DNA of 64,000 bases from Orenia marismortui DSM 5156 (GTDB lineage: Bacteria; Bacillota; Halanaerobiia; Halobacteroidales; Halobacteroidaceae): positions 858,820 through 922,819 of the forward strand of contig NZ_KB900617.1 of NCBI RefSeq assembly GCF_000379025.1, read 5' to 3'. Position 1 is the stretch's first letter. Every line of letters begins with the position of its first letter. Below the pieces are notes generated by a model. It was not told the origin of the DNA and searched no databases. It saw nothing but the letters and a program-made list of their open reading frames with translations. Made by a program: the position numbers and the translations under genes. Of this stretch, positions 13,560 to 55,434 are shown piece by piece.

Positions 13560-13577
13560 TTACAAATATACAAAAAA

Positions 13578-13603
13578 AGATAGACCCTGCCAGGGTCTAT
13601 CCG
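13578..13603 (-). terminator. Terminator hairpin 'atagaccctgccagggtctat' after thrC. It follows the T7 run on the minus strand.
   Basis: The minus-strand read is 'atagaccctggcagggtctatctttttttg'. Confidence 0.6.
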
Positions 13604-13612
13604 AATTAAATA

Positions 13613-16886: not shown

Positions 16887-19800
16887 TTACTTCATGCTAT
16901 TTCCTATTAACTTAAGACTTTCTCCTATCTGATTTAATTCTTGAATTACTTGTATTACATTTTGACCATCTTTTTCTGATTTTTTCTTAAGATATATCTC
17001 TTTTATCTCTTGCCATCTCTGCTGTTGTTCTTCTGTCATTCTATTACTGATCTCATAGAATTTCAACAAACTTGCTTCTGCTTCAGTTGCCAAAGTCTGA
17101 GCATCATTAATATAACTATTCTCTACTAATCCCTTGATTTCATTGTCATTCATAATTGGAACTACTTTTTCTACTATTTTGTTAATATTTCTATAAGAAC
17201 CTTGTAATTTAAATGGTGGTTCTGTTCTGTATTCATCACTTTGAGATGAGGAATAAATATACTCCATATTTACCTTCAAAATTTCATCTCTTATCTTCAG
17301 ACAGCTTTCTAATACACTTAAAGCCTCTTCTATTTCTTCCTCAGTATAGCTTCCATTTAAATCAATATCTCCCCTATCTCCAGTATCAATAGCTTGAATC
17401 AATTTATAAATATCTCCAGAATCTTTCATATAGATATTATTTAAGTAAGTATTTGAAGTAACAGCATTCTCTATATAACTGAGCTTAAAGGCCTCTTCAT
17501 TCTCCCTTAACATATCACCTAAGTTATAAACATCAGCTCTATTTGCTAACATATCAGGAATCTTAAACTTATCACCACTTTCAGTATAAGGATTTCCTGC
17601 CATTACCACAGCAACCTTCTTACCTCTAAACTCATAGGTCTTACTAACCCCATTATAAACACCTTCAATCTTTCTCTGCCCATCACACAAAGAGATAAAC
17701 TTCTGCAAAAATTCTGGGTTTGAATGCTGGATATCATCTAAATAAATCATTACATTATTTCCAAGTTCAAAGGCTAAATTTAATTTTTTCAACTCTTCTC
17801 TCGCCCCTGCATTTTTAGCTTCTGCTGGATCAAGAGAAGTAACACCATGACCAATTGTTGGACAGTTCACCTTGACTAACATCATACTCAATCTATTAGC
17901 AACATACTCCATTAGGGTAGTTTTACCATAACCTGGTGGAGATATCATTAGTAACATCCCCATGTTATCAGTTCTCTTATTCTTTCCTGCTGTACCTATC
18001 TGTTTTGCTAAATTATCACCGATTAAAGGTAGATAAACTTGGTCTATTAACTTACTTCTTACAAAGGAGGTTAAGACCTTAGGTTGTAAATCATTAAAAT
18101 TAATTTTATTTTTTATCTCTTCAATCTTAGCAAATTTTAATTGCTGGAATTTTTGATATTGTGGTATAATCTTATTTTTGAAATTATCTAACTTATGAAG
18201 AAAATCTATCAGATTAATTTGATATTTACCATTATCAATCACCTTATGAGTACCTACTAACTTATCTATAATCATTTCTGATTTTTTATTAATTGCTCGT
18301 CGATTGGAATAGTCACCTAAGATTAAACTCACTAAGACTTCATAGATATAGTCATTAAACTCTAACTCTTCTTCATATAAGTAAGATTGAACCCATTCAT
18401 TCACTAAAATATATCTTCCTTCTAAGTCATCACTTAAATTCTCTAAGGATTTTTTGAAGTCTTTTTTTCCTCCCTTTGAGATTAAAAAGTTATCAAAATT
18501 CTCATATATCTCTGCTGCTTCTACACTCAATACAAAAGTTTCATTCTGACTTATCTCTTTTGCTAAATATTCAGCAATTTTTTGATTATCATCAGTCTCT
18601 ATCCAGGGATTTTCATCTACAAAAGATTCTACCTCTTTAGCTAGACTTGGAATAAATCCTTCTATTAAGCCACGTTTAGAATATTTTGAGATCATATTTA
18701 CAGTCTTTAATCTATTTTGAAGCTTCTCTTTTCTTTCTTGAATTAAGCCAAATTGCCAAAATAAATTGGCTACAGCTCTAACTTTTGGGTTATAAGAAGC
18801 TAATTCTAACTCCCAATATATATTAACTAGAGTAGATAATATTTTATACGCATCATGATCATGAACACCTTTAGTATAATACTCATTAGAATGCTCTTGT
18901 ATATACTCTTTTATAATCCTATTTAAAGTCTGTTCATCTTTTTGATACAACTCTTCTAAAGAATTATTCTCTTGATAATTTTTAAAGATATTATATGCTA
19001 AAAACTCTCCTCGATATACTTCTTCATTTTCAGAGATAACTTTCTGGTCCCAAACCTCTTGATAATTGCTAAATTCTTCTGCATCTACCTGCTCCCAAAA
19101 GTCGGTACCAGAAATATGAAAATAGAATCCATCCTCTTTTTTAAGTAGACTAAGCTCAGGCTTTTGATTGTTTACAAGGAAATGATTATTCCCAAACTTA
19201 ATAGTATTCTCATCTAAGAATAGTTCCTTTTTATCCTTTAATTGCTTAATACTCGACTCTTTTAAAGACTTTAACTTATTTTCAATATCATCGGCTTTAG
19301 TACTATCACCAAGCTCTATCAACTGTTCTATAATATCTCTTATCTTATCTACCATAGGGCTAGTTGATAATAGTTCATTAATAGAACTTACTTCTTCAAA
19401 AGATTTTACCCTGTTTTTCAAACTTTTAAAGATTCTATCGGCAGCATTACTCAAAGAATCTATCTTTTTATTCTTCTTTTCAATTAATTGTTGCTTTTTG
19501 GACTCAAAGGTTGAGATTACTTCATCCCTTTTTTCAGTTAACATTACTAAAAATTCATCAAAATCAGAAAATTTACTTTCTAACTCATCAATCTGAACTA
19601 TTATTTTGGACATATAATCTTCGGTTTTTTCTACATTAGTAGATAAATCTAAATAGTTGGATACAGAATGAGTCAACAAATTCAGCTTGGAATAAAACTC
19701 CGCCTCTTTTTCTCTAGCATTCAAATTATCTATCTTATTCTTTAATTTAGATTTACTTTGATTCAAATTGGAAAAAAGCACAGAAATCTTATCGATTATC

Positions 19801-21773
19801 TCAGAAGTCTTAGTTGCATCTTCAATCTTTAAAGTATTTACTATATTAATTAGCATTTCTAATTCTTCTGATACTTTGACTATCTTTTGATTCAGTTCTT
19901 TTCCATCTACAAGCTTTTCAACTGTAGTTAAATTATTCTCTATGGACTTTACCTCTTCAATATAAGGATTTAAGCTTTCATCTTTGAGGAGAAAATTAGT
20001 ACAATCCAATGATAATTTATCATTCTTCTCTTTTATCTTTTTAGATAGATCTTCAACCTTCTTCTCATCAATAAATTGTAAATCCTTAAGTGCTGAGATC
20101 TCTCCTCTGACCTTTCTTATTTTAGTCAGATATTTTACAAAGTCATTGATATTTTCAAAGCTAGTATAGCCAATAGCTTTACTAATATCCTCGACCTTCT
20201 CTTTGACCTCATTATAGCTATTAGTTGTATTCTCTTTAATCTTAGTAACCTTATCAAACTCTTTAATCGCAATTGCCCCTGCTTCTTTAATTTTAAGCAG
20301 TGACTCTTTTATATTAAAGGCTTCCTTTTTGTCTAGCCAGAAATAATTATTGATAATATTTTCAGCATCTTTTACTATATCTACATATAAACCATAGTAG
20401 CTATCATCTTTTTGAGATAAGCTATAAAGCGAATAACAATCAGCCATCAATCTAACTATCTCTTTATTTCCGATATTATATAAGAATTCGTCCTTCTTCT
20501 CATCCTTTTCTTCTAATATATCTTTTACAAAGGAAGTCTGCCAAATTTGAATGGTATGATTTCTTTTAGGCTCTTGTCCTGCTTTAAAGATAATCAATTC
20601 TCCATTATCAAAATGTGAATATCCATTACAAATTATTGGCGTTTCAATATCTTGATGAATTATATTATAATTATGAATATAGTACTCTCCTGTTACTATA
20701 TCATAGAAGATATATTGATAGTCTTCACCATTTATAGAAGCTTTTTTATTTTGAAAGACTACATTCTGATAATCTACTTGAAATTTTTTAAAACCTCCTG
20801 CTTGTAAAAAGATACCATCAGGAAAGATTATTCCATGGTCTTCTGGCAATAAAACTACTGATTTTGCTATAGAATCTATCCGCTGTACTTCCTTCGTCTT
20901 CTCATTAAAGACAATATATCTATAATTCTCTTCTTGGTAGGGTTTTATCTTAAGTAAAATAAGATTTCCTACTATAGAATAGAAGATATCAGCATCATCA
21001 AGCTTTTGATCTTTTTGCTCTACTTCTTCTGCATAAATACCTTCTCCAGAATTTGTATTATCCTCTATCTTTAAGGTTAACGTCCCACCAATAGTTTCTA
21101 CAAATATACGATCTTCAATGGAAATATGGGGATGAAGACCAGCAACCTGGTCTTCTCTTGTAGTTATTTTCCATTCTATTTCTTGTTGGGTAGGATATAA
21201 AATCTCATGACTAAACCTATTACCCAAATACTCTATACTTTTATCTTCTTTGATTACCCATTTAAAACTCTTGATATCATCTACCTTATCTCCATTTTGA
21301 AAGACCATATAAATAAAATTATCTTTCTCATGAAATTTCGTAAAAAAACTATCTTTATAATATTTATACAACTCTTTAAAATCACTTTTAAATTGCTTAT
21401 CATTTAATAAAGAATAATCTTCACGAACAAATCTATCGCCATTATAAGTATATATAGAAAATACATCACTCAATTTACTTTCTGACTTTAATCCTAAGTG
21501 AACATTATATCCCAAAATAACTTTATTTCCTACTGGGACTATATCTCTAGGGATACAACTATTTTCTGTAACTATAGCTTCACTCTTCTTTAAGGTGTTT
21601 TTTATTTCGCCATATATCTCTATTCTCTTTTGATCTAATTTCTCTAATTTTTCTTTTAACTCTTTAGTTCTTTCAGTTAATCTATTTCTAATAACATTGT
21701 AAGAAGCAAAATTCTCCTGTTTTTTTTCTTGCTTAACTTCTTCCCCCATATCTATATCTATCCCCTTACCCAA
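16887..21773 (-). CDS. Giant (1628 aa) coiled-coil protein with a C-terminal AAA+ ATPase domain of AAA_5/MoxR-like type. The N-terminal roughly 500 aa is a beta-rich domain of unknown family.
   Basis: Walker A 'SPPGYGKTT'; Walker B-like 'VMIYLDDIQ'; sensor motif 'VVMAGNPY'. A heptad-like coiled-coil region of more than 600 aa precedes the ATPase. The start codon overlaps the flotillin stop by 8 bp. Confidence 0.7.
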   Translation of the reverse strand: MGKGIDIDMGEEVKQEKKQENFASYNVIRNRLTERTKELKEKLEKLDQKRIEIYGEIKNTLKKSEAIVTENSCIPRDIVPVGNKVILGYNVHLGLKSESKLSDVFSIYTYNGDRFVREDYSLLNDKQFKSDFKELYKYYKDSFFTKFHEKDNFIYMVFQNGDKVDDIKSFKWVIKEDKSIEYLGNRFSHEILYPTQQEIEWKITTREDQVAGLHPHISIEDRIFVETIGGTLTLKIEDNTNSGEGIYAEEVEQKDQKLDDADIFYSIVGNLILLKIKPYQEENYRYIVFNEKTKEVQRIDSIAKSVVLLPEDHGIIFPDGIFLQAGGFKKFQVDYQNVVFQNKKASINGEDYQYIFYDIVTGEYYIHNYNIIHQDIETPIICNGYSHFDNGELIIFKAGQEPKRNHTIQIWQTSFVKDILEEKDEKKDEFLYNIGNKEIVRLMADCYSLYSLSQKDDSYYGLYVDIVKDAENIINNYFWLDKKEAFNIKESLLKIKEAGAIAIKEFDKVTKIKENTTNSYNEVKEKVEDISKAIGYTSFENINDFVKYLTKIRKVRGEISALKDLQFIDEKKVEDLSKKIKEKNDKLSLDCTNFLLKDESLNPYIEEVKSIENNLTTVEKLVDGKELNQKIVKVSEELEMLINIVNTLKIEDATKTSEIIDKISVLFSNLNQSKSKLKNKIDNLNAREKEAEFYSKLNLLTHSVSNYLDLSTNVEKTEDYMSKIIVQIDELESKFSDFDEFLVMLTEKRDEVISTFESKKQQLIEKKNKKIDSLSNAADRIFKSLKNRVKSFEEVSSINELLSTSPMVDKIRDIIEQLIELGDSTKADDIENKLKSLKESSIKQLKDKKELFLDENTIKFGNNHFLVNNQKPELSLLKKEDGFYFHISGTDFWEQVDAEEFSNYQEVWDQKVISENEEVYRGEFLAYNIFKNYQENNSLEELYQKDEQTLNRIIKEYIQEHSNEYYTKGVHDHDAYKILSTLVNIYWELELASYNPKVRAVANLFWQFGLIQERKEKLQNRLKTVNMISKYSKRGLIEGFIPSLAKEVESFVDENPWIETDDNQKIAEYLAKEISQNETFVLSVEAAEIYENFDNFLISKGGKKDFKKSLENLSDDLEGRYILVNEWVQSYLYEEELEFNDYIYEVLVSLILGDYSNRRAINKKSEMIIDKLVGTHKVIDNGKYQINLIDFLHKLDNFKNKIIPQYQKFQQLKFAKIEEIKNKINFNDLQPKVLTSFVRSKLIDQVYLPLIGDNLAKQIGTAGKNKRTDNMGMLLMISPPGYGKTTLMEYVANRLSMMLVKVNCPTIGHGVTSLDPAEAKNAGAREELKKLNLAFELGNNVMIYLDDIQHSNPEFLQKFISLCDGQRKIEGVYNGVSKTYEFRGKKVAVVMAGNPYTESGDKFKIPDMLANRADVYNLGDMLRENEEAFKLSYIENAVTSNTYLNNIYMKDSGDIYKLIQAIDTGDRGDIDLNGSYTEEEIEEALSVLESCLKIRDEILKVNMEYIYSSSQSDEYRTEPPFKLQGSYRNINKIVEKVVPIMNDNEIKGLVENSYINDAQTLATEAEASLLKFYEISNRMTEEQQQRWQEIKEIYLKKKSEKDGQNVIQVIQELNQIGESLKLIGNSMK

Positions 21774-23805
21774 TTATTGATTTTATTGGATCATTTTCTA
21801 CTCCAAGTTCTTTAGCTTTATCTAAGATCTTAGTTATAGCTGTGCTTGGAGTGCCATTAGAATCATCCATATATTTCATTATAGCACTAGAAATTGTAAG
21901 GTTCTTTATTGCTTCAGTATCAACATTAAAACTATTGATTAAAGTTTTTAACTGCTTTTGAAAATTATCTATATCTCCATTAAAAAATGTATCCTTTACA
22001 TCGGTTAAGACATTAGAATTATTAACCAATCTATCAACTTGCTTTCCAGCACTAATTGAATTTATTAGCTTATCAAAGAAGATTGAGTCTCCACCAACGA
22101 TATCAACATTAGCATTCTTCAATCCGTCTTTCATTATTTCTGCTTGTGCCCTTGCTATCTCTGCTTTAATACCTATCTCTGCTAGTTCTACTTCCTTATC
22201 CTTATTTAGTTTTAATTTAAACTCTTCATGCTCTTTTCCTACAGAATCCAACTTTTTCATTGCTTCTGCTTTTCTGTTAATTCCTTCAGCTTCTGCTAAT
22301 GCCTTTTCTCTAGTTACTTGTGCTTCTGATTCACCTTTAACTTTAATTGCTTTAGCTTCTGCTGCTGCTTGCATCTCTTCAACTTTAGCTTTTGAAGCAC
22401 CTTCTGCTTCAAAGGCCTCTGCCTGTGCTTTCATTACTCTAGAATCAGAGATTCCTTGTACTGAAGCTTCCTCTGCCTTAGCATCTGCCATAATCTTAAT
22501 AGACTCAGCCTTCTTATGGGAGGTCTTTAGTTCAGTATCTGCCATTATAACCTCTTTTTCAGCTAATTCTTGAGCACTTTGTTTTTCTGCCTCAGCAAGT
22601 TTGATCTTGTCAATTGCCTTAACTTCTGCATCACTTTCAGCCTTTGTAACATTTACCTGCTTATCTCTATTAGCCTGAGCTATCTCTATAGTATCCTTTA
22701 TCTTCTCTTCTTCCTCTGCTACTGATTTCTCAACCATTACTCTTTCTCTAACTACTTCTTGCATACTCTTCTTCTCTTTTTCTAAATCCTTTTCCTTAGC
22801 TATTTTGGCAAGAGAAACTACTTTCTCTCGTTCTGTTCTTTCTATTTCTGTCTCTTTTTGTGCTCTTTCTTGTTGTACAGATTCTGTTCCTTCTTTGGAT
22901 ACTCTAGCAATAATTATCTGTCTATCTTTATTCTCTTCAGCAATTGAAATCTCTTCATCAGTCTTGATTCTTGTTCTTTCTGCTTTTAATCGCTCTTCCT
23001 CTTCTACAATTTTTATTTGAGAATTTTCTCTAGATTTCATATTAGCTATTTCTCTCTTTTGCTTCTCTTCTGCTTCAGTCTGCTGTCTTTCCAATTCTAA
23101 AACAGCCTCTCTGGCACTTACATCTTGTTTAACAATTGTCTTCTCTTTATTTCTTTTAATTTCATTTGATTTCATTGCCTGAGTTGCAGTTAATTCAATA
23201 ATCTTTTTAATACCTTCTGAGTCAAGTACATTATTCTCATCTAAATTCTCTACCTTTGTCTGTTCTAAATAATCAATGGCAGCATCATCTAATACATAAC
23301 CATTAAGATCAGTTCCTATCACTTGAAGAATCTCTTCTTTAAAAGTATCTCTTTCAGTATAAAGTTGCGTAAATTCAAATTTCTTTCCAACTGTTTTTAA
23401 AGCTTCTGAAAATTTAGCATCAAAAAATTCCATTAAAGTAGCAGTATCAGATGCTTTTTTAGTTCCTAAAGATTTAGCAACTCTTAGTACATCCTTCTCT
23501 GTATGATTTACCCTTACAAAGAAAGCTACCTTGATATCGGCTCGTAAATTATCTTTACATATCAGTCCAGCTTTGCCACTTCTCTCGATCTCTACCTTTT
23601 TAATAGATACATCCATCTTCTCCCAATGGTGCAATATCGGAATAATCCAGGTTCCAGTAAAGGAGACCTTTGACCCTCCAATTCCATTCTTTACAATAGC
23701 AGTTCCTTGATCTACTTTCTTATAAAATAGTGTTAATAATATAGGAAAGGCTATAAAAATTAAAAAGGCCACTCCTCCAACAACATATAATATCATTTTT
23801 AACAT
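21766..23805 (-). CDS. floT: Flotillin-like SPFH/band-7 protein (FloT/YqiK family, 679 aa).
   Basis: N-terminal TM helix; SPFH domain '...RADIKVAFFVRVNHTEKDVLRVAKSLG...'; long Glu/Ala/Lys-rich flotillin coiled coil. Confidence 0.8.
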   Translation of the reverse strand: MLKMILYVVGGVAFLIFIAFPILLTLFYKKVDQGTAIVKNGIGGSKVSFTGTWIIPILHHWEKMDVSIKKVEIERSGKAGLICKDNLRADIKVAFFVRVNHTEKDVLRVAKSLGTKKASDTATLMEFFDAKFSEALKTVGKKFEFTQLYTERDTFKEEILQVIGTDLNGYVLDDAAIDYLEQTKVENLDENNVLDSEGIKKIIELTATQAMKSNEIKRNKEKTIVKQDVSAREAVLELERQQTEAEEKQKREIANMKSRENSQIKIVEEEERLKAERTRIKTDEEISIAEENKDRQIIIARVSKEGTESVQQERAQKETEIERTEREKVVSLAKIAKEKDLEKEKKSMQEVVRERVMVEKSVAEEEEKIKDTIEIAQANRDKQVNVTKAESDAEVKAIDKIKLAEAEKQSAQELAEKEVIMADTELKTSHKKAESIKIMADAKAEEASVQGISDSRVMKAQAEAFEAEGASKAKVEEMQAAAEAKAIKVKGESEAQVTREKALAEAEGINRKAEAMKKLDSVGKEHEEFKLKLNKDKEVELAEIGIKAEIARAQAEIMKDGLKNANVDIVGGDSIFFDKLINSISAGKQVDRLVNNSNVLTDVKDTFFNGDIDNFQKQLKTLINSFNVDTEAIKNLTISSAIMKYMDDSNGTPSTAITKILDKAKELGVENDPIKSIIG

Positions 23806-24057
23806 TAAACATTCCTCCTTGACACTATATAATTTTTATGTAAAAAAAGCTTATCTCATCTTAATATAAAAGATCTTTAGAGACATAGCTTATATAAACT
23901 TTATAAATAAATTCACTTACTTCCCACCAGCTCAAAAAACTCCTTAGCTATTAATAATCTAAAAAATTATAATACCGCCACAGACTAGACCCCAATGTCA
24001 TAAAGCTATACTGCAATAAAAAAGAACTTAATGTTAATTATCTTAAATTTATGAAAA

Positions 24058-24215
24058 GTTCCTCTCTCTTAAGAATAAGAGAGAGGTTAGGAGATTTCTT
24101 TTATCACGGAGTGGTCGTTAGACCCGTAGAGAGAGTTGTGAGTTTTTAAAACCTCGAACTCTCCCCTTAATCCCCTCTCTTCATCCCAAGCGAGGGGAAA
24201 AACATAACCCCTTTC
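24058..24215. repeat. MITE-like palindromic element, copy A. Its roughly 85-bp core is shared in reverse orientation with 55538-55619.
   Basis: Palindrome 'cctctctcttaagaataagagagagg' followed by 'ttaggagatttcttttatcacggagtggtcgttagacccgtagagagagttgtgag' and a second hairpin 'cccctc...gagggg'. Confidence 0.7.
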
Positions 24216-24322
24216 AAAACATTTGTGAATTAATGGTATTGTAAATTGATGACATTGGGCTGAATCCTGTGGCTAATAAATTACTCATAAATAGTTGAAC
24301 ATTTAACTATTTCATCTTTCTA

Positions 24323-24988
24323 TTAAATATTTAACTTCTCTTTTACAATATATAGTTCTTTCCCTTGAACTTTTGATACTACAATTATTTGACTACCCTT
24401 CAAAATGTTTTCTCCTAAAGACTTTACATTAATTACAATAGGATATCCATTAACTATAATTTCAGCCTGAGCAATATTTCCAGAATTCAAACTGGACTTC
24501 AAAACACAGCTCTGACCAATAATCTTAATATCACTTCTGTCTTCCATAGAGGCAAAAAATCCTTTCAATGGCTCTGTAAGTCCTTTAGTTATAAAAATTG
24601 ATATTATAAAATTCTGTACAAATATTAAAATCCCCAAAAAGGAGTTTGGAGAAATATTCGTATAATAAACTAACATGGTCAAAGACCATAGTACAAGAAA
24701 TAAAATAGTACCGTAAAACATAATAGGCACAGCACCAATATTTAAAAATTTTAATATCTTTACAGAATAATATTTTACTGTTCCCAGCTCTGATTTTATT
24801 TCTTCAGGATCAATTCCACCATCAAAGTACATATTAGATGAAAAGTCCACCTCTAAGTCTAATTCAAAATCTATAGTATCAAAGGAGAATATGCCCAATA
24901 TTATTAAGAGCCAGTAGGTTATTACCATAATTAAAAAAATAGAAGGTAGTATATTGATTCCAGTAAAAGCAAATTGAATATATTCCAT
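24323..24988 (-). CDS. NfeD-like (YuaF/YqiJ-type) membrane protein and flotillin partner (221 aa).
   Basis: N-terminal TM helices plus a C-terminal Gly/Val-rich beta-barrel-like domain, located upstream of the flotillin gene. Confidence 0.5.
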   Translation of the reverse strand: MEYIQFAFTGINILPSIFLIMVITYWLLIILGIFSFDTIDFELDLEVDFSSNMYFDGGIDPEEIKSELGTVKYYSVKILKFLNIGAVPIMFYGTILFLVLWSLTMLVYYTNISPNSFLGILIFVQNFIISIFITKGLTEPLKGFFASMEDRSDIKIIGQSCVLKSSLNSGNIAQAEIIVNGYPIVINVKSLGENILKGSQIIVVSKVQGKELYIVKEKLNI

Positions 24989-33254: not shown

Positions 33255-34922
33255 GTGGATAATTTGGAGAATATATTAATCTTAAATGGTAGTCCACGAG
33301 GAAAGAAAGGTAACACAGCTAAGTTAGTTGATAATTTTATTACAGGTCTTAAAGAAGAGAGTTCTAATCTTATTATTGAAAATATTGAATTATACAAGAA
33401 GAATATCAATTCTTGTACAGGATGCTTTTCTTGCTGGAATAAGACTCCTGGTAAATGTATTTTTAATGATGATATGAAAGATCTAATTTCTAGTTATGTT
33501 AATGCAGATTTGGTAATTTGGGCTACCCCACTTTATCATTTCGGAATGACTTCTATAATGAAAAGGTTCACTGAAAGAACCTTGCCAATTAATAAACCAG
33601 ATATAGTGAAATATGATGAAACTTATACCCACCCTCAAAGATATGATATGAATAATAAAAAAAATATACTAATATCTACTGCTGGTTTTCCTGAAGCTCA
33701 TAACTTTGAAGTATTAATAGATCAGCTAAACAAAATAACTGGAGGCAAAGTTAGTGAAAGTATTCTAACTGTCATGGGGGAACTATTATCAGTCAAAGCC
33801 TTAGAAAACAGAATATCCTGGTATTTAGATGCTGTTCAGCAAGCAGGTAAAGAATTTATATCACAAGGCTCCTTAAACAAAAAAACAAAAGATCTTTTGA
33901 AAAAAGAATTAGTTCCTATCGACGATTTTGTTGAAATGGCTAATTTAACTCAGAAAACAGAAGAAAAAATCACAACAGAAAAATCACAAAAAGGATATAA
34001 TCTATTAAAGTTGATGGGCCATAGCTTTGTTCCCAATAATGCAAATGGCATTGATGCTATTTTAGAGATGGAATTTACAGACTTGAATGAAAGCAACCAC
34101 TTTATTATTAAAGATAACAGCTGTCAACTAAAAAAGGGGCCTAGTAATAACTTTAGTGCTAAGATCATTACAGGCTATGAGATTTGGCAAAAGATTTCTC
34201 AAGGAGACTTAGATGGACCTCAAGCAATGATGGATGGACTTTATAAAATAGAAGGAGATTTTGATTTGATTCAAAAATTAGACAGAATCTTTGGTTCATC
34301 TAAGGGAAAACAAGATAATAAAAATCAAAAAATAAATATAGATTCCCGATTAGTTGGTCAAAAAGCAATGGGAATCTCCTTTATTCCTTGGGTCTTCTCT
34401 TGGATCTTCATTGAATCAAATCTCTTAGCAGGAGTTTTATTACCTCTATTACTTAGTTTAGGACTGGTTGCTATCAAAAAGAAAAAATATGAGCTTACTT
34501 ATTTTGAAAAAATGAACACTCTATATTTCTCAATCTTATCCATTATTAGTCTTTTTGATTATCAGCTATTAAGTAATATAGGCATTGAGCTTAACTACTT
34601 TGCAGTAGCTTCAATCTGGGGTCTATCAGTCTTATTTAACACTGCTTTGACCAGCGATTATTCAAAGTATGACTATGAAGAAGATCTAGAAGATAATCCT
34701 ATATTTATTAAAACCAATGATATTCTAACTCTATTTTGGGCATTAATGTTTGTTGGTCAAGGTGTAGCTATGATTATTTTAAAGAATTATAGCTATTTAA
34801 AATACTCTCCACTACTATATATATTAATTTTAGTAGCCATTAAATTTACTAATTACTTTTCCAAGAAATATCCTGAATATATTGCAAAAGGAAAGCTTAA
34901 AAAAAATATCTTCTCCTCTTAA
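33255..34922 (+). CDS. Flavodoxin-like NAD(P)H-dependent FMN reductase / iron-sulfur flavoprotein domain fused to an SCP2 domain and a C-terminal multi-TM region (555 aa).
   Basis: N-terminal 'ILILNGSPRGKKGNT...CTGCFSCW' region; central SCP2-like segment '...GDLDGPQAMMDGLYKIEGDFDLIQKL'; about 4 TM helices at the C-terminus. Confidence 0.55.
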   Translation: MDNLENILILNGSPRGKKGNTAKLVDNFITGLKEESSNLIIENIELYKKNINSCTGCFSCWNKTPGKCIFNDDMKDLISSYVNADLVIWATPLYHFGMTSIMKRFTERTLPINKPDIVKYDETYTHPQRYDMNNKKNILISTAGFPEAHNFEVLIDQLNKITGGKVSESILTVMGELLSVKALENRISWYLDAVQQAGKEFISQGSLNKKTKDLLKKELVPIDDFVEMANLTQKTEEKITTEKSQKGYNLLKLMGHSFVPNNANGIDAILEMEFTDLNESNHFIIKDNSCQLKKGPSNNFSAKIITGYEIWQKISQGDLDGPQAMMDGLYKIEGDFDLIQKLDRIFGSSKGKQDNKNQKINIDSRLVGQKAMGISFIPWVFSWIFIESNLLAGVLLPLLLSLGLVAIKKKKYELTYFEKMNTLYFSILSIISLFDYQLLSNIGIELNYFAVASIWGLSVLFNTALTSDYSKYDYEEDLEDNPIFIKTNDILTLFWALMFVGQGVAMIILKNYSYLKYSPLLYILILVAIKFTNYFSKKYPEYIAKGKLKKNIFSS

Positions 34923-35147
34923 TTCTACAATAGAAGAATGAACAGATATAAAATAGCATAAGAAAGATTTCAACAATTCTTCAAGAAACGATAGTAATAA
35001 AGTATAACCTGAAGGTCTTCCTAAAGGATAACCTTACTAAAGTATGACCCAAAGAACAGTCCTTAATACTACTTCAATCTTGCGCAATTAAAATTGGAGA
35101 ATCAGTGTTAAAAACACTATGCTTTGATTAAAATTGGAGGTGATTTT

Positions 35148-36110
35148 ATGAAAAGAGCTAGTAGTAGCTTATATTTATTAATTATATTAATTCTTTTGTT
35201 AATTGGAGTGTTAGAGGTTAATGCTATGAGCAAAAAAACTTATGCTAAGTCTACTTTAAAAATTAAGGTAGCTAATGGCAAAGATTTCAGTGTAGTAGGA
35301 AATGTTAAGATCGTTGATGACTTTCAAATGACTCCGCTAGATAGAAAGAGAAGAATCTGGATATACCTGCCACCTGATTATAATCAAAGTAATAAAAGAT
35401 ATCCTGTTCTTTATATGCATGATGGTCAAAAGGTCTTTGATATGCCTGTAGGACATCGTGTAGAATGGGAGGTAGATGAAAGTCTGGAGAGATTATTTAA
35501 CGAGAATAAGACTGATGGAGTAATCGTAGTAGCAGTAGAGCACGGAGGGGAAAGCGGGAATTATTATAGATATCGTGAATACGCTCCTTGGAGCATTTAT
35601 AATAGTCAAGGAGAAGCTCCTCCAGTAGAGGCAGATGATTATGTAGAGTTTATCGTTAGTAAATTAAAACCTTATATCGATAACAATTATAGAACATTGA
35701 AAGAACGTGAGCATACTGGAATCGCTGGTTCTTCTTTAGGAGGATTGATCTCTTTATATGCAGGGCTTAAATATCCAAATGTATTCTCTAAAATAGGTGC
35801 TTTTTCCCCATCTTTATGGGTTGGTTATAATGAGTCTAGTAAAGGAAATGGAATGATCTTTGATTGGATACAAACTAGAGAAATACAAGAAGAGATGAAG
35901 ATATATCTCTATGTGGGGGGACAAGAAGTTGGTGGTAATTTAGAACAAAGCAAGTTCTTTAGGAATAATGTAGTTTCCTTTTATAATTTGTTACAACAGA
36001 TAGGTTTTAAGAAAGATGATTTAAAGCTAGTAATAGATGAAGAGGGCAATCATTATGAAAACTACTGGGCAAAATATTTTCCAAAAGCCTATCTCTGGTT
36101 ATTTGAATAG
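35148..36110 (+). CDS. Secreted alpha/beta-hydrolase esterase of the enterochelin-esterase-like 'putative esterase' family.
   Basis: Signal peptide; 'GSSLGG' nucleophile elbow; start moved to the ATG preceded by the SD 'ggaggtga'. Confidence 0.7.
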   Translation: MKRASSSLYLLIILILLLIGVLEVNAMSKKTYAKSTLKIKVANGKDFSVVGNVKIVDDFQMTPLDRKRRIWIYLPPDYNQSNKRYPVLYMHDGQKVFDMPVGHRVEWEVDESLERLFNENKTDGVIVVAVEHGGESGNYYRYREYAPWSIYNSQGEAPPVEADDYVEFIVSKLKPYIDNNYRTLKEREHTGIAGSSLGGLISLYAGLKYPNVFSKIGAFSPSLWVGYNESSKGNGMIFDWIQTREIQEEMKIYLYVGGQEVGGNLEQSKFFRNNVVSFYNLLQQIGFKKDDLKLVIDEEGNHYENYWAKYFPKAYLWLFE

Positions 36111-36367
36111 TTAAATTCATCATCTAAATTGCAGGTTGGTATTTTAGCTGCTAAATTACACTTTAATTTAAAAATAAGTAATTGGTGCTAACCATAACTA
36201 TAGTTAGCGACTTTGGATGAAGTCTTTAAAATTATAAACAAAAGAAATGCATATTATCCTAAAGATTATAAATATAAAAGTAGCATTTTAGGTCAAGTTA
36301 TAGGGGATATCGAAATAGTAGGTAAAAATAATGGAACTTAAACAGAATTATGTCTAAAGAAAGGAAG

Positions 36368-36400
36368 AGGCTCTAGCTAGAGCCTCTTCCTTTCTTTAAA
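36368..36400. terminator. Bidirectional terminator, perfect palindrome 'gaagaggctctagctagagcctcttc'.
   Basis: Direct reading of the sequence. It lies between the converging esterase and ferredoxin genes. Confidence 0.7.
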
Positions 36401-37213
36401 CTAATTTTTCAGCTCACCATCAATACTAATTGTAACAATTTCTACTTCTAAATCTGATTCAGCTTTTCTAACTGCTTCTTCTGCAATTCTTACCATTCCA
36501 CCACAGCAAGGAACTTCCATCCGAGCCACAGTAATACTATTTAAATCATTATTTGCAATAATAGAGGTTAATTTATTTACATAAGCCTGCCCATCATCTA
36601 GCTTCGGACAGCCCATTGCTACTGCTTTTCCTTTTAATAATTTCTGATGATAATTTGCATAAGCAATTGGAACACAATCAGCGGTAATTAATAAATCGGC
36701 ATTTTTAAAATATGGAGCCATTGGAGGTACTAAGTGAATTTGAACTGGCCATTGTTGTAATTCAGATTGAATTTCTACATTATTATTATCCTTTGAATCT
36801 TTATCCATAACCTTCATTTGCTTACCTGGACATCCACCCTTAGCCTTCTTCATTACTCTCATTCTACTTCCTGGACAGCCTCCACTACTATGATTTGAAG
36901 ATGAATCAGAATTATTAGCTTCATGCTCTTTTTGGGCTTCCATCATTTCTTCTACTGCCTCTTCACCTCTTAAACTTCTAACATGTTCTGCCGTTGCATC
37001 TAAGTCAAACTCTTTAGCTTCCCGTTCTGTAATAACTAAAGCACCTGTTGGACATTCACCTATACAATCACCAAAGCCATCACAAAAACTCTCATTTACC
37101 AACTTTGCCTTACCATTCACAATCTGTAATGCTCCTTCATGACAACCTGTTACACATAAACCACAACCATTACATTTATCTTCATCAATTTCAATAATCT
37201 GTCTTGTAGCCAT
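36401..37213 (-). CDS. 4Fe-4S dicluster ferredoxin-domain protein with a Cys-rich C-terminal domain ('...PCCGGM...').
   Basis: Motifs 'CNGCGLCVTGC' and 'CDGFGDCIGECP'. Confidence 0.6.
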   Translation of the reverse strand: MATRQIIEIDEDKCNGCGLCVTGCHEGALQIVNGKAKLVNESFCDGFGDCIGECPTGALVITEREAKEFDLDATAEHVRSLRGEEAVEEMMEAQKEHEANNSDSSSNHSSGGCPGSRMRVMKKAKGGCPGKQMKVMDKDSKDNNNVEIQSELQQWPVQIHLVPPMAPYFKNADLLITADCVPIAYANYHQKLLKGKAVAMGCPKLDDGQAYVNKLTSIIANNDLNSITVARMEVPCCGGMVRIAEEAVRKAESDLEVEIVTISIDGELKN

Positions 37214-37423: not shown

Positions 37424-37645
37424 GTGAAGAAGAAGGTATATCTTGAAAATATAGAATCAGAAGAAGATTTAGATCTAATTAAAGGGAATTTAAAAGAAAT
37501 AGATGAAATTAAATTTGTTAATGTAGATGCTAAAGATAATAGCATCACTGCTACACTAAAAAAGCAGATTACTGATCAAAAGATTAAAGAAGGAATCAAG
37601 ACTGTTAGTGACTGTCATGTAGAAAAAATTTATGATTTAGACTGA
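37424..37645 (+). CDS. Small hypothetical protein (73 aa). GTG start preceded by the SD 'aaaggaggtaa'.
   Basis: Strong SD, with a near-perfect 44-bp palindromic terminator immediately after the stop. Confidence 0.4.
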   Translation: MKKKVYLENIESEEDLDLIKGNLKEIDEIKFVNVDAKDNSITATLKKQITDQKIKEGIKTVSDCHVEKIYDLD

Positions 37646-37689
37646 AATAACCTAACTAAGGATTAGCTAATCCTTAGTTAGGTTATTTT
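37646..37689. terminator. Near-perfect 44-bp palindrome 'aaataacctaactaaggattagctaatccttagttaggttattt' (bidirectional terminator).
   Basis: Direct reading of the sequence. Confidence 0.75.
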
Positions 37690-37699
37690 TATTTTAATT

Positions 37700-38040
37700 T
37701 ATAATTTATCTCTTAGCTCTTCTATTTCATCTCTAATTTGGGCTGCTAACTCGAACTACAAGTTTGCCCTACGAGTCTTAAAAATCCAAGACTCTTCGTA
37801 AGAGTTCAATCATCATAGTTTAGTGCGTAACTCCTCAATCTCGTCCCTTATCTGAGCTGCCAGTTCAAACTCAAGGTTCTTCCTACGAGTTTTTAAAATA
37901 CGAAAAACTCTCCGTGACTATTAAGTTTACAACTTATTTCTTAATTCTTTAATTTCATCGCGAATCTGTGCCGCTAACTCAAATTCTAAATTCGCCCTAC
38001 GAGTCTTAAAAATCCAAGACTCTTCGTAAGAGTTCAATCA
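37700..38040 (-). repeat. Array of three relic copies of the uvrB 3' end, each about 63 bp encoding a UVR-motif tail. Two of the three carry an intact stop and downstream hairpin; the outermost copy (A) has only a conserved tail.
   Basis: The copies at 37700-37762, 37812-37876 and 37928-37990 encode '(stop)[18 protein letters not shown]', '[20 protein letters not shown]' and '[20 protein letters not shown]', compared with the real tail '[20 protein letters not shown]'. Hairpins occur at 37763-37811, 37877-37927 and 37991-38040. Confidence 0.85.
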
Positions 38041-40020
38041 TCATAGTTTAGTGCGTAATTCTTCAATCTCGTCTCTAATCTGAGCTGCAAGTTCAAACTC
38101 CAAATCCTTCGCTGCTTCTTCCATCTCTTCTTCTAATTCTGCTATCTCCCTTAAAATCTCTGCTTCTGACATCTCTTCTAGCTCTTCTTCATCTAGCTTG
38201 TAATCTTCTCTACTTTCAACTACCATATCAACTGGACGAAGTACCTCTCTAACCTTCTTCTTAATAGTCTGAGGAATAATATTATGTTCTTCATTAAAAT
38301 CCATCTGTAACTGACGACGACGGTTAGTCTCTCCAATAGCTTCTTTCATTGAATCGGTCATCTTATCAGCATACATAATCACTCTACCATTAGCATTACG
38401 AGCAGCTCGTCCAATTGTTTGAACCAAAGATGAAGTTGAACGTAAAAAACCTTCTTTATCTGCATCTAAAATAGCGACTAAAGACACTTCAGGAATATCT
38501 AATCCTTCTCTCAATAGATTAATACCCACCAAAACATCAAATTTACCTAAACGTAAATCTCTAATAATCTCTAATCTTTCAATAGTATCTATATCTGAAT
38601 GAAGATATCTAACTTTAATTCCTGACTTTTCTAAATAATCTGTTAGATCCTCTGCCATTCTTTTAGTTAAGGTTGTAATTAATACCCTTTCATTTCTAGT
38701 AATTACTTGATTAATCTCACCTAGCAAGTTATCAATTTGATTTTTAATAGGTCTTACCTCTATCTCTGGATCAATCAAACCAGTTGGACGAACAATCTGT
38801 TCTACAACCTGCTTACTTCTTTGAAGCTCATAATCTGCTGGTGTAGCAGAAATATATACAACTTGGTTAATCAAGCTTTCAAATTCATTGAATTTTAAAG
38901 GGCGATTGTCTAAAGCAGAAGCTAAGCGAAAACCATACTCTACCAATCTTTCTTTTCTAGATCTATCCCCTGCATACATCCCTCCAATTTGAGGAACAGT
39001 TTTATGAGATTCATCAATGACTAATAAAAAATCATCAGGAAAATAATCAAGTAAAGTTTGTGGTCTAGAACCAGAAGCCCTTCCTTCTAAATGTCGAGAA
39101 TAATTCTCTATCCCAGAACAGAACCCTACTTCTGACATCATCTCCATATCATACTTAGTTCTTTCTTCTAATCTTTGAGCTTCTAATAACTTCCCTTCAC
39201 TTCTTAACTCTTCTAACCTCTCTCCTAACTCTCTTTCAATTTCTTCCAAAGCACGTTCAATCTTATCTTCTGGAGTAACAAAGTGGCTAGCAGGATAAAT
39301 TGTCAATTCACCTAAATTACCTAAAATTTCACCTGTCAAAGTATTAATCTCTTTAATTTGATCAATCTCATCTCCAAATAATTCAACTCGATATGCCTTA
39401 TCTTCATACGCTGGAATAATTTCTATAACATCACCTTTCACCCTAAAAGTCCCTCGGGCAAAATCAATCTCATTTCTTTTATATTGAATCCCTACCAACT
39501 CACGAATTATATCACTTCGATCTTTAATCATTCCTCTTTCTAAATAACAGGTCAAATCTAAATAATCAGCTGGATTACCCAATCCATAAATACAGGAGAC
39601 ACTAGCTACAATAATTACATCATCACGCTCAAATAAAGAACTAGTTGCCGATAATCTCATCTTATCAACCTCTTCATTAATTGAAGCATCCTTTTCTATA
39701 TAAGTGTCTGTTTGTGGTACATAGGCTTCTGGTTGATAATAGTCATAATAACTAACAAAGTATCCCACTTTATTTTCAGGGAAGAACTCCTTAAATTCAC
39801 TACATAATTGTGCAGCCAAAGTCTTATTATGGGCTATAACTAAGGTAGGCTTTTTTACTTCCTCGATTACATTTGCTATAGTAAATGTCTTTCCTGAACC
39901 AGTTACCCCTAATAATGTCTGTTCCTTCATTCCTTCCTCCATGCCTGAAACTAATTTTTCAATTGCTTTAGGTTGGTCGCCTTTAGGAGAATACTCTGAA
40001 ACCAGCTTAAAATTAGGCAT
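38041..40020 (-). CDS. uvrB: Excinuclease ABC subunit B.
   Basis: Helicase motifs '...[10 protein letters not shown]...' and DEAD-like 'VIDESH'; UvrB interaction domain; C-terminal UVR motif. Confidence 0.95.
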
Positions 40021-48535: not shown

Positions 48536-49740
48536 TCATTGTAAAATCAAATTGAACAAAATAAAAATAGCCATAGGGCACCAACCTGTAATATAATTAA
48601 ATCACCACAAAATAACCAGTTACAGGAGGGTGCACACTATGACTTACTTAAATGATACACCAAAATCCCGAAAAAATAAACACCTAAATGCTTATGAACG
48701 TGGTCAAATTGCATTATTACATTCCGAAGGAATGAATCCAAATGCTATTGCAAAACGTTTAGGTAGAGCTTCTAATACCATTAGAAACGAACTAAAACGT
48801 GGTACAGTTTCTCAAATTAAAGCTAATAAAAAGATTATGGTCTATTACCCTGACACTGGTCAAAGAGTTTATGAATCTAATCGCAAGAATTGTGGTCCTA
48901 AATTTAAACTTTTGCAATGTGAAGAGTTCATTGATTATGTTATAGAACAGTTCTACGAAAAAGGACATTCTCTTGATGCTATATGTGGTGCAGCAAAACT
49001 TCATAATAAATTTCCAAAGCCAGAGATGGTATCTACTAAAACGCTTTATAACTACGTCAACGCTGGATTATTGACAATTAAAAACATTGATTTACCTTTG
49101 AAGCTTAAGCGTTCTTCAAAAAGAAAGCACACTAAAAATAATAAAAAGAAGCTTGGTACAAGTATAGATCAACGCCCTGAAAGTATTAATAATCGTAGTG
49201 AGTTTGGTCACTGGGAAATTGACACTATGATAGGCAAAAAGACTAAAAATGAATCAGTTTTACTTACTATGACAGAACGTATGACTCGTAAAGAAATTAT
49301 TCGTAAAATCCCTGCCAAGACTGCTCAAGCAGTTCAAGATGCTATTTTAAAGCTCGTTAATGAAGCAGGAGATTGTTTTTCCAAAGTATTTAAAAGCTTC
49401 ACTTGTGATAATGGCTCTGAGTTTGCTCAAATGTCATTTTTAGAGCAAATTAGTGATACTAAAGTATACTTTGCACATCCATATTCATCATGGGAAAGAG
49501 GAACTAATGAGCGTCATAATGGTCTTATAAGACGCTTTATCCCTAAAGGTAATAGTCTAAACCAATTCTCTATTGAATCTATTGCTAGAGTCCAAAACTG
49601 GTGCAATACTTTACCAAGAAAAATCTTAGATTACCTAACCCCTGATGAAATATTTGAAGATAAATTAAAACAAATTCTTTATGACTAAATAACCAAATTA
49701 TTACAGTTTGAAAATGTTCAATTTATTATTGCAATTTAAG
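48536..49740 (+). mobile_element. IS30-family insertion sequence, copy 1 (about 1.2 kb), with imperfect terminal inverted repeats around 'AAATTGAAC'.
   Basis: The ends align with copy 2 at 54227-55434: 'ttcattgtaaaatcaaattgaac...' versus '...gttcaatttattattgcaatttaag'. Confidence 0.8.
48630..49688 (+). CDS. IS30-family transposase (352 aa).
   Basis: N-terminal HTH 'YERGQIALLHSEGM'; DDE core carrying the IS30 signature 'GHWEIDT...CDNGSEF...WERGTNE'. Confidence 0.9.
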   Translation: MHTMTYLNDTPKSRKNKHLNAYERGQIALLHSEGMNPNAIAKRLGRASNTIRNELKRGTVSQIKANKKIMVYYPDTGQRVYESNRKNCGPKFKLLQCEEFIDYVIEQFYEKGHSLDAICGAAKLHNKFPKPEMVSTKTLYNYVNAGLLTIKNIDLPLKLKRSSKRKHTKNNKKKLGTSIDQRPESINNRSEFGHWEIDTMIGKKTKNESVLLTMTERMTRKEIIRKIPAKTAQAVQDAILKLVNEAGDCFSKVFKSFTCDNGSEFAQMSFLEQISDTKVYFAHPYSSWERGTNERHNGLIRRFIPKGNSLNQFSIESIARVQNWCNTLPRKILDYLTPDEIFEDKLKQILYD

Positions 49741-54226: not shown

Positions 54227-55434
54227 CTTAAATTGCAATATTAAATTGAACTAGTTTCAAACTGTAATAATTTGGTTAATTAGTTATATAGAATTTCTCT
54301 TAGTTGATCTTCAAAAGCTTCATCAGGAGTTAGGTATCCTAAAATTTTTCTTGGTAGAGTATTACACCAGTTTTGAACTCTAGCAATAGATTCAATAGAG
54401 AATTCACTTATACTTCTGCCTTTAGGTATAAAACGTCTTATGAGACCATTATGACGTTCATTGGTACCTCTTTCCCATGATGAATAGGGATGAGTAAAAT
54501 ATACTTTTGTATCAACTATTTCTTCTATAACACCTAGCTCTGAAAATTCAGAGCCATTATCGCAGGTAAAGCTTTTAAATACAGTAGAAAAAAGCTCTCC
54601 AGAGTCTTTGATTAGTTTTAATATAGCATTTTGAACAGATTCAGCTGTTTTACCAGGAATTTTACGAATGATTTCTTTACGAGTCATGCGCTCTGTCATA
54701 GTGAGTAAAACTTCATCATTTTTATTCTTTTTACCAATAACAGTGTCAATTTCCCAATGCCCAAATTCACTGCGATCATTAATATTTTCAGGGCGTTCAT
54801 CGATACTTGTGCCAAGTTTCTTTTTATTACGCTTAAGACATTTTGATTTTGAAGAACGTTTAAGCTTCAATGGCAAATCAATATTGCTAATCTGAAGTAG
54901 TCCAAGATCTATATAGTTATATAGAGTTTTAGTGCATACCATCTCTGACTTTGAGAATTTGTTATGCAGCTTTGCTGCACCACAAATAGAATCAAGAGAT
55001 TGTTTATGCTCGCAAAATAACTCTATAACATAATCAATGAATGTTTCACATTCTAAAAGCTTAAATTTCGGTCCGCAATTTTTACGATTAGATTCATAAA
55101 CTTTTTGACCAGCGTCAGGGAAGTAAATCTCTACAGTTTTATTGCCTTTAATTTGGGAAACTGTACCACGCTTTAACTCGTTTCTAATTGTATTAGAAGC
55201 TCTACCTAGACGTTTTGCAATAGCATAAGGCGACATTCCTTCGGAATGTAACAATGCAATTTGACCACGCTCATAAGCATTTAGGTGTTTATTTTTTCGG
55301 GATTTTGGTGTATCATTTAAGTAGTCCATAGTGTGCACCCTCCTGTAATTTTTTGTTTTGTGGTGATTCAATTATATTACAGTTTGGTCCACTATGGGCA
55401 TTTTTTTATTAGTTCAATTTAATTATACAATCAA
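54227..55434 (-). mobile_element. IS30-family insertion sequence, copy 2. It is inverted relative to copy 1 and diverged from it.
   Basis: Terminal sequences align with copy 1. The transposase is about 85% identical by eye. Confidence 0.8.
54280..55329 (-). CDS. IS30-family transposase. The start is taken at 'MDYLNDTPKS', which aligns with the copy 1 start.
   Basis: Same HTH and DDE motifs as copy 1. Confidence 0.9.
   Translation of the reverse strand: MDYLNDTPKSRKNKHLNAYERGQIALLHSEGMSPYAIAKRLGRASNTIRNELKRGTVSQIKGNKTVEIYFPDAGQKVYESNRKNCGPKFKLLECETFIDYVIELFCEHKQSLDSICGAAKLHNKFSKSEMVCTKTLYNYIDLGLLQISNIDLPLKLKRSSKSKCLKRNKKKLGTSIDERPENINDRSEFGHWEIDTVIGKKNKNDEVLLTMTERMTRKEIIRKIPGKTAESVQNAILKLIKDSGELFSTVFKSFTCDNGSEFSELGVIEEIVDTKVYFTHPYSSWERGTNERHNGLIRRFIPKGRSISEFSIESIARVQNWCNTLPRKILGYLTPDEAFEDQLREILYN

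Follow-up and report, generated by a model that had tools for sequence, protein, structure and literature searches.

We analysed a 64,000-nt stretch of the genome of Orenia marismortui DSM 5156 (contig NZ_KB900617.1, positions 858,820 to 922,819; hereafter the window) in which the 3′ end of uvrB is repeated in a short array directly behind the gene. The uvrB product carries UvrB_inter, UvrB, Helicase_C, ResIII and UVR domains (Pfam), and the gene closes with a tandem TGA TGA, the stop codon proper occupying 38041–38043. Three extra copies of the final 20 codons and stop lie 3′ of uvrB, arranged head to tail with tails starting at 0, 114, 228 and 342 nt; the 114-nt period equals 38 codons, and all four tails (the live tail c0 and the relics c1, c2 and c3) share a single reading frame. 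Tandem Repeats Finder returned one array with a period of 114 and 3.4 copies, and a degenerate back-translation of an 11-residue tail motif gave four matches in the 64 kb against none expected. No relic of a gene's own tail was found downstream of any other gene in the window. An earlier sequence-only reading of this DNA had described three further uvrB ends downstream of the gene; these are confirmed here in the places it named, shifted by 1 nt, and with the peptides it had given, including the TAG at codon 2 of c3.

The repeating unit is a 114-bp cassette. It opens with two junction codons, continues with 20 codons for the UVR motif's loop and second helix, and closes with a stop codon followed by a 45-nt spacer, which finishes at the base of a hairpin. 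Alignment of the uvrB body with the spacer ends located a sharp boundary that is identical in every unit (...ACT CGT AGG followed by GCG AAT or AAG AAC): the cassette starts two codons before LEFEL and ends with ...ACT CGT AGG, the 3′ base of the extended hairpin, and in the case of the type A hairpin described below the boundary coincides exactly with that base. Two cassette types, A and B, alternate along the stack and differ at ~30–37% of positions, nearly all of them synonymous. Type A has the junction codons AAG GAT, AAG GAC or AAG AAC (K-D or K-N), the codons CTT GAG TTT GAA CTN, the stop TGA TGA and the hairpin GAGTCTT/AAGACTC; type B has the junction GCG AAT (A-N), the codons YTA GAA TTT GAG TTA, the stop TAA and the hairpin GAGTTTT(T)/(A)AAAACTC. 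A third tail type, D, forms the terminus of the stack in O. marismortui and directly abuts the true terminator. The D tail of the window (c3) resembles the live tails of Halonatronum and of the related locus L087, and for this reason is probably the oldest end, still in its original position.

In the window the uvrB body runs directly into the A-specific K-D junction. Other Orenia UvrBs have AN at this point (...EEAAAN-LEFEL), with the exception of UvrB P0006 from L098, a member of an O. metallireducens clade, which reads KN and ends ...AAKN...TRLW. Live UvrB ends are of the A form (...AAKD or ...AAKN) in P0001 and P0006 and of the B form (...AAAN) in the remaining UvrBs. The window's UvrB is 100% identical to the O. 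marismortui protein P0001. Behind the A unit of the window the former B end is intact, GCG AAT included, and in a second O. marismortui strain the ortholog of c1 serves as the live end (L082_c0), the correspondence extending to the intact GCG AAT junction codons. The relics had been pictured as captures from different lineages; we found instead that the stack consists of a terminal D tail and of cassettes of two old types, A and B, which predate the species split and exchange sequence inside the array.

The 7-bp hairpin helix of the spacers is intact in 9 of 9 distinct units. Compared with shuffled sequence, the gain in folding is only modest, with z of about -2 for the A hairpin and of -0.3 to -1 for the B hairpin. 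Both had been taken for terminators, but neither has a T-run or scores as an intrinsic terminator in a consensus scan, the hairpin being followed by GTAGGGCGAAT or GTAGGAAGAAC; only the palindrome at the end of the array scores, and it is common to uvrB with its array and to the convergent 73-aa gene. The compensatory changes reported between hairpins are present as covariation, although the single covarying pair amounts to one evolutionary event. As a dispersed repeat resembling repetitive extragenic palindromes (REP) or miniature inverted-repeat transposable elements (MITE) the hairpin found no support, its motif occurring only in uvrB arrays across the window and 98 loci, and Rfam gave no hit at gathering score, with only sub-threshold matches of miRNA models to the palindrome. 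In the second O. marismortui strain the palindrome is kept (L082, ~12215–12260) with a double central change that preserves it (GGATTAGCTAATCC versus GGATTGGCCAATCC), and the hairpin of a relic A unit (12095–12142) is remodelled and 3 nt shorter (TCTTGGATTTTTAAGA to TCAGGTGTTCAGA), which looks like a single complex mutation of the stem-loop. Coordinates are collected in Table 1.

Table 1. Positions of uvrB, the cassettes of its downstream array and associated features in the window, and of uvrB relic loci in Streptococcus
Locus	Feature	Position	Strand	Remarks
Window	uvrB CDS, 659 aa	38041..40020	-	ORF list and Pfam; final 22 codons are part of cassette c0
Window	Cassette c0, type A, live	37996..38109	-	Tail 38103-38041; junction AAG GAT (K-D); 45-nt spacer ending ACTCGTAGG
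Window	Cassette c1, type B, relic	37882..37995	-	Tail 37989-37927; junction GCG AAT (A-N); spacer with GAGTTTTT/AAAAACTC hairpin
Window	Cassette c2, type A, relic	37768..37881	-	Tail 37875-37813; junction AAG AAC (K-N); A spacer
Window	Terminal tail c3, type D, relic	37699..37767	-	Tail 37761-37699; TAA stop; TAG at codon 2
Window	Type A spacer hairpin, GAGTCTT-N8-AAGACTC + GTAGG	37996..38022	-	-13.2 kcal/mol, z -1.95; no T-run
Window	Type B spacer hairpin, GAGTTTTT-N8-AAAAACTC + GTAGG	37882..37910	-	-7 kcal/mol, z -0.3
Window	Second type A spacer hairpin (cassette c2)	37768..37794	-	Exact match
Window	36-aa TTG ORF over spacer A and relic c1	37927..38037	-	Starts 3 nt past the uvrB stop
Window	Perfect palindrome, 44-46 bp	37644..37689		Sole terminator-like element here (consensus scan)
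Window	Convergent 73-aa gene	37424..37645	+	HMA-like in relatives (weak match); fixed limit of the array on its downstream side
S. oralis L057	Region with second uvrB 3′ end	11959-13993		Split GIY-YIG/Schlafen-type helicase between live end and relic
S. oralis L062	Region with second uvrB 3′ end	11959-13302		Acyl_transf_3 protein between live end and relic
S. downii L071	Region with second uvrB 3′ end	11959-13313

Arrays in related genomes

The relatives compared were the second O. marismortui strain (L082), L087, L095 (Halonatronum) and two O. metallireducens clades (L084/L088/L089 and L085/L086/L090–L094/L096–L098) that are ~20% diverged from the window. Read from the live unit outward, the array is A-B-A-D in the window, B-A-D in the second strain, B-A-B-A′ with a truncated A′ in seven assemblies (L085, L090–L094, L096/L097), B-A′ in L086 and A-B-A-B-A′ in L098; a single tail is present in L084/L088/L089, L087 and L095. 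Array-bearing strains whose UvrBs are 98–99% identical therefore carry between two and five tails, against one tail in the three array-free lineages. Where the 73-aa gene comes next, between 61 and 520 nt separate it from uvrB, and the arrays differ from one another by complete units. L098 has one unit more than the other arrays on a contig that finishes before the next gene, and its DNA equals the L085 array with one additional A cassette in front. A-live and B-live strains occur in both species and differ by one front cassette. Copy-number polymorphism and switching of the live type are thus seen directly: cassette number varies among strains in complete units, both species include strains with A live and strains with B live, and the array is older than the split between O. 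marismortui and O. metallireducens.

Spacing between units is 114, 114 and 114 nt in the window and 114 and 111 nt in the second strain, with all units in frame in both, whereas a 113-nt unit breaks the frame in every O. metallireducens array. It had been suggested that the array might prove to be an assembly artefact. Homologous arrays were recovered in the second strain and in at least seven independent O. metallireducens assemblies from different samples (ENA/megahit, JGI and Logan), that is, by three assemblers in relatives.

Substitution pattern and recombination footprints

Relative to the live tail, c1, c2 and c3 differ at 18, 7 and 17 of 60 nt, corresponding to 2, 0 and 2 amino acid changes, and the differences fall mostly at third codon positions (neutral simulation, P<0.0002). 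Over all tail pairs, 7–22 of 60 nt differ with only 0–3 amino acid changes (pN/pS 0.02–0.13), and a neutral simulation with random substitution at the same number of sites gave P≤0.0004 for every pair with at least six differences. The pattern also holds for a relic compared with a relic across species (window c2 versus L085_c1, 9 nt and 1 aa). The sequence-only reading had recognised this synonymous-only divergence, but its figure of more than 20 substitutions is true only between relics (22 between c1 and c2) and not against the live tail. Its two main deductions stand: the pN/pS values effectively rule out simple tandem duplicates decaying in place, and the protein-level signature of selection supports the view that the copies were once functional uvrB ends and suggests that the cassettes spent most of their history as such.

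Divergence of the cassettes can be set against that of uvrB itself. The gene as a whole diverges by 2.3% and its third positions by 5.8% when the two O. marismortui strains are compared, and by ~20% and 43%, respectively, when the species are compared; the ~20% corresponds to ~12 differences in 60 nt. For cassettes of one type the between-species difference is 7–15 of 60 nt, similar to the uvrB body, and A differs from B or D at 14–22 of 60 nt, above the between-genus value of ~23%. These levels date the A and B lineages to before the species split and indicate that both have evolved like coding sequence since. The distal relics have decayed, as is expected for untranslated DNA (the TAG in c3, the truncated A′ unit and the frame-breaking 113-nt unit). 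We make no claim for an over-divergence of A from B beyond synonymous saturation, as under selection for dissimilarity, only one of three comparisons being nominally significant (P=0.013), nor for a foreign origin of the relics on the basis of GC content at third positions (GC3), which reaches 0.45–0.50 in some relics against a 95th percentile of 0.35 in O. marismortui uvrB windows, 20 codons being too weak a sample.

Recombinant junctions and conversion tracts are also directly visible in the arrays. L086 equals L085 minus 228 nt, and the junction lies within a 16-nt identity in the B spacers and creates a hybrid spacer. In the window the last 63 nt of c0 and c2 are identical (0 of 63), whereas the preceding segment differs at 9 of 51 positions (Fisher P=0.0005), and the identical stretch looks like a conversion or crossover tract; a division of the same differences into tail and spacer (7 of 60 versus 2 of 51) is not significant (P=0.17), the correct partition being 9 of 51 versus 0 of 63. 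The live tail of the second strain is chimeric (P=0.015), its 5′ half being close to B (1 difference, against 8 from D) and its 3′ half close to D (2 differences, against 7 from B), so that sequence found in a relic of one strain forms part of the live tail of another. Same-type cassettes likewise exchange sequence.

The two O. marismortui strains differ by ~2% in the flanks of the array and by 10–17% inside it. The D relic (c3) shows 10 differences from its ortholog in the second strain over 60 nt (P=1e-6, with a background of 2.3%) and c1 differs from L082_c0 at 8 of 60 nt (P=7e-5), both mostly at synonymous sites; the window c2 tail differs from L082_c1 by 1 nt. In L098, the array without its front A cassette differs from that of L085 at 1 of 423 nt, whereas 12 of the 29 differences between their uvrB bodies cluster in the last 250 nt and are partly alleles common to other strains, which we read as the footprint of a recombinational import that brought in the new end. 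The longest exact identity is 9–14 nt between adjacent cassettes and 21–63 nt between cassettes of the same type. The proposal that the uvrB 3′ end is a recombination hotspot is borne out by the contrast between flank and array, and repeated allelic replacement, one of the two routes originally suggested, fits both the occurrence of live A and B ends in each species and the patch of clustered polymorphism in L098.

Origin and turnover of the array

We consider, with a probability of roughly 0.55, that the cassettes are allelic uvrB ends which were once live and which form a polymorphic stack turned over by recombination. Three processes would drive the turnover: unequal crossover, gene conversion, and homologous exchange among strains that carry their arrays in different registers. 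Only the first cassette would be translated, and the others, if transcribed, would form a 3′ untranslated region (UTR) extending to the palindromic terminator. The live position would pass between A and B on a timescale of ~1–2% sequence divergence and the relics would repeatedly be overwritten from selected copies, which together would explain the synonymous-only signature in untranslated cassettes, provided that exposure as the live end is, as we infer, frequent enough to purge nonsynonymous changes. Alternation of types would be a survivorship effect, in that adjacent identical types would collapse whereas unlike neighbours persist because an identity of 9–14 nt, compared with 21–63 nt within a type, is too little for efficient homologous recombination; the alternation would thus reflect recombinational stability. 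The most fitting view of the stack, which has no demonstrated function, is that recombination at a highly conserved gene end generates it as a by-product and that it perpetuates itself.

Several observations weigh against this interpretation. The argument from live-end exposure is qualitative and draws on few genomes, namely two O. marismortui strains and approximately three distinct arrays of the O. metallireducens clades. The founding event, in which the hairpin base was joined to the junction codons and a natural A-type end (...AAKD or ...AAKN) came into being, is left unexplained by the model. Because the B spacer has no homology to the uvrB body, homologous recombination alone cannot turn a body-B junction into a body-A junction, which requires A-live alleles to be old or imported. 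Type A cassettes form a tight cluster (7–9 of 60 nt in all comparisons) irrespective of species, and this failure to group by species may reflect cross-species transfer or stronger constraint. The spacers differ by only 8–22% between species compared with ~43% at synonymous sites, which hints at a constraint on the hairpin for which the favoured model has no need. Finally, the copy number in the window strain appears to rest on one assembly, the strain's own short-read contigs breaking at the array: in Logan contigs built from its reads, L001 ends 12 nt past the uvrB stop and L101 ends inside the palindrome. The break is accounted for by the 63 identical nt shared by c0 and c2, and arrays of this kind will be systematically lost or truncated in short-read assemblies.

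Serial site-specific integration, by elements whose attP carried a replacement uvrB end and whose bodies were later lost to leave att-like scars, was the other route originally suggested and now appears improbable. Its appeal is that the repeats restore the 3′ end of the gene as att sites do, each unit supplying a complete UvrB C-terminus and stop, and that the hairpin (7–8-bp inverted repeats about an 8-nt centre) resembles the core site of a tyrosine recombinase; the precise cassette boundary at the hairpin base would follow as well, as would the fact that in both species new units join the stack at its front, and stacked att relics are reported elsewhere, for example in the ssrA islands of Dehalococcoides. 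However, a Pfam scan of the window (ORFs of at least 100 aa with overlapping antisense ORFs excluded, and gene calls for 43.5–52.9 kb) found no tyrosine or serine recombinase in the 64 kb, the only mobile-element genes being two IS30-type DDE transposases 10–16 kb from uvrB, and no integrase lies within 10 kb of uvrB in the gene calls of five relatives (L082, L084, L085, L087 and L088–L095). Not a base of element DNA separates the units in ~10 arrays, where they abut directly with a period of 113–114 nt, so that repeated exact loss of every element would be needed. IMG/VR gave no match to the tail pattern or to the tail-plus-hairpin pattern, and a scan of JGI metagenomes found chromosomal uvrB arrays only and no element-borne copy, plasmid and GenBank phage collections not having been searched; among the matches listed, a scan of genome contigs returned distant relatives only (≤69% identity) and no Orenia loci, but brought to light the Streptococcus loci described below. 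The hairpin is absent elsewhere in the window and in 98 loci, the changes actually observed, namely the 228-nt deletion and conversion tracts, have junctions that depend on homology, and no literature on integration at uvrB ends or on the Orenia locus was found.

We regard it as equally doubtful that the relics are functional and directly selected in place, whether through translation, as a selected reservoir or as a structure in the 3′ UTR of the uvrB mRNA. The case for translation centres on relic c1, which, contrary to the statement that no relic sits in an ORF, lies within the 36-aa TTG ORF listed in Table 1; reinitiation there could give a 36-aa UVR-helix peptide that modulates UvrB-UvrC pairing, with read-through or bypassing as alternatives. 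The position of this ORF would suit translational coupling, a 35-aa gene is called over the terminal relic of the second strain, the two O. marismortui strains have every unit in frame, and the synonymous-only pattern extends even to cassettes that are relics in both species. The TTG is nevertheless not kept in O. metallireducens, where it is replaced by TAG in L085 and by TTT in the A-live L098, and the 113-nt unit breaks the frame in every array of that species. Two or three in-frame stops stand behind each tail, c3 carries its TAG, the last unit is truncated in the other species, no Shine-Dalgarno sequence occurs at a useful distance from the TTG and no identical product is on record, so that the ORF is probably not expressed. 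Translation of the relics in general appears unlikely given the unconserved TTG, the broken frame, the multiple stops, the TAG and truncation, and the three relic-free lineages, which also indicate that the stack is dispensable. As to a role in the mRNA, the helix is intact in all nine units and the spacers are more conserved than synonymous sites, but the B hairpin folds no better than shuffled sequence and no Rfam family matches.

Two further ways of obtaining protein from the array were rejected. A genetic code with TGA as a sense codon, which would fuse c0 to c1, does not agree with the long translation table 11 ORFs found throughout the window or with the TAA and TAG stops behind other units. 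Read-through, frameshifting or bypassing to give tandem UVR helices is opposed by the multiple in-frame stops and by the 113-nt unit in the other species. In L098 (2070–2078) a TGG replaces the first TGA of the tandem stop, which adds a terminal Trp to UvrB and leaves termination to the second TGA; judged from this sequence, the tandem stop acts as a backup there.

A still less probable account is active, position-specific stacking directed by the hairpin, with a 114-bp cassette added between codons 637 and 638, or else direct selection on silent cassettes. The addition may take the form of single-strand recombination like that of integron attC sites or of hairpin-directed template switching, the cassettes may serve as a reservoir for the C-terminal helix of UvrB, and in a variant they may be expressed as UVR-helix micropeptides that tune UvrB-UvrC pairing. 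We retain this account because the hairpin base marks the cassette boundaries exactly and all nine units have an intact helix, because a whole A cassette precedes an intact former B end in both species, and because the relics are free of nonsynonymous change across species. An active cassette-stacking mechanism, if true, would be much more important than recombinational turnover.

Ordinary tandem duplication, expanded by slippage and decaying neutrally in place, is very unlikely, and the distribution of changes over codon positions refutes it as a full account. The head-to-tail repeats, their constant 114-nt period, the variation in copy number from strain to strain and a boundary hairpin that could promote slippage are in its favour, but neutral decay predicts ~5–13 amino acid changes for 7–22 substitutions where 0–3 are seen (P≤0.0004), the divergence of A from B exceeds between-species and even between-genus levels and yet is synonymous, and no spacer-like sequence lies behind the last unit, contrary to simple duplication. 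A founding duplication may nevertheless be the ultimate origin of the array. Least credible of all is a repeat wrongly expanded or collapsed in assembly, for although short-read contigs of the same read set stop at the array and the palindrome, and c0 and c2 have 63 identical nt in common, each of the four units contains unique sequence, the junctions fit one linear order only and homologous arrays recur in the second strain and in at least seven ENA/megahit, JGI and Logan assemblies.

Parallels and significance

The favoured stack of once-live cassettes combines known kinds of arrangement, namely gene-end relics at points of recombination or integration and tandem arrays under concerted evolution. 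In Dehalococcoides, ssrA-targeted islands reportedly contain stacked repeats of the integration site, and in Streptococcus thermophilus elements of the ICESt1/ICESt3 type undergo tandem accretion at the 3′ end of fda. As in such att relics, direct repeats of a gene end pile up downstream in Orenia, the nearest copy is the functional one and the site is a recurrent point of recombination; unlike them, the Orenia array has no integrase, no interposed element DNA and no attP-bearing element, and its repeats are long (114 bp), of two alternating and deeply diverged types and rearranged in a homology-dependent manner. The ssrA-targeted islands of Dehalococcoides are the subject of PMC3146451. Tandem arrays shaped by unequal crossover and gene conversion share with the Orenia locus a constant period, whole-unit polymorphism, recombinant junctions, conversion tracts and homogenisation within types, and differ in that Orenia expresses the first unit only, keeps two types distinct and has a coding-type pattern in untranslated units.

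Silent-cassette systems such as Neisseria pilE/pilS and Borrelia vlsE are similar in that untranslated partial copies adjoin an expressed gene and donate sequence to it, as exemplified by the D-type sequence that is a relic in the window and part of the live tail in the second strain; the template and variable repeats (TR/VR) of diversity-generating retroelements (DGR) also place a repeat of a gene 3′ end downstream. In contrast to silent-cassette systems, the Orenia cassettes all encode the same protein with 0–3 conservative differences in 20 residues, and no diversification results. A DGR or other retroelement was rejected, no reverse transcriptase domain being found in the 64-kb window by Pfam and the differences between c0 and c2 involving all four bases without an adenine bias.

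In Neisseria, the minimal mobile element concept describes islets that lie between conserved gene ends and are swapped by homologous recombination, and in transformable bacteria homology-facilitated illegitimate recombination leaves scars. Here too a conserved gene end is the anchor and the displaced end survives as a synonymously different allele, although in Orenia the "cargo" is a 45-nt hairpin spacer and the relics are up to four deep with a fixed period. Similar-looking loci were found when we screened 77 uvrB loci from other Bacillota with at least 100 nt of downstream flank: in two loci of Streptococcus oralis and one of S. downii a second uvrB 3′ end of 83–196 nt lies 1.2–2 kb downstream, separated from the live end by cargo genes that differ from one locus to another (Table 1). 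Mismatches at codon positions 1/2/3 number 1/0/12, 0/0/4 and 3/3/17 in the three loci, and no integrase was found at any of them. This pattern is the one expected for a conserved gene end that acts as a recombination anchor with the displaced resident allele kept as a relic, and on this sequence evidence islets that are exchanged by recombination seem to have been anchored repeatedly at the uvrB end.

Elsewhere in the window, the IS30-type transposases (HTH_38 and rve domains; 48630–49688 on the forward strand and 54280–55371 on the reverse strand) lie in opposite orientation on either side of nrdD/nrdG and pfk and could represent a composite arrangement. An esterase gene (PF00756; 35124–36110, forward strand) between ferredoxin-like and flavodoxin/SCP2 genes is missing in the second strain, whose alignment with the window breaks down at ~36420 (region about 34900–36420). 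A cluster on the reverse strand (16887–24988) encodes a 1628-aa DUF3686/DUF7902 "ATPase involved in DNA repair" together with 679-aa and 221-aa proteins without a Pfam match and may be a defence or repair system; in O. metallireducens the ferredoxin-like gene near uvrB is immediately followed by this cluster, and synteny has therefore been rearranged.

The array is a curiosity of genome evolution and reveals no new enzyme, pathway or molecular machine. It is, however, a clean natural example of untranslated DNA bearing the substitution signature of a protein-coding gene, a signature that gene-finding and dN/dS methods take as evidence of translation and that here most likely arises because the cassettes often exchange sequence with the expressed position and rotate into it. 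The array also points to a rule of tandem-repeat stability, open to experimental test, by which only alternating, synonymously recoded neighbours would persist. Together with the Streptococcus loci, the array suggests that the UVR-helix end of uvrB is a recurrent recombination anchor in Bacillota, which helps to interpret the variable islets found beside uvrB.

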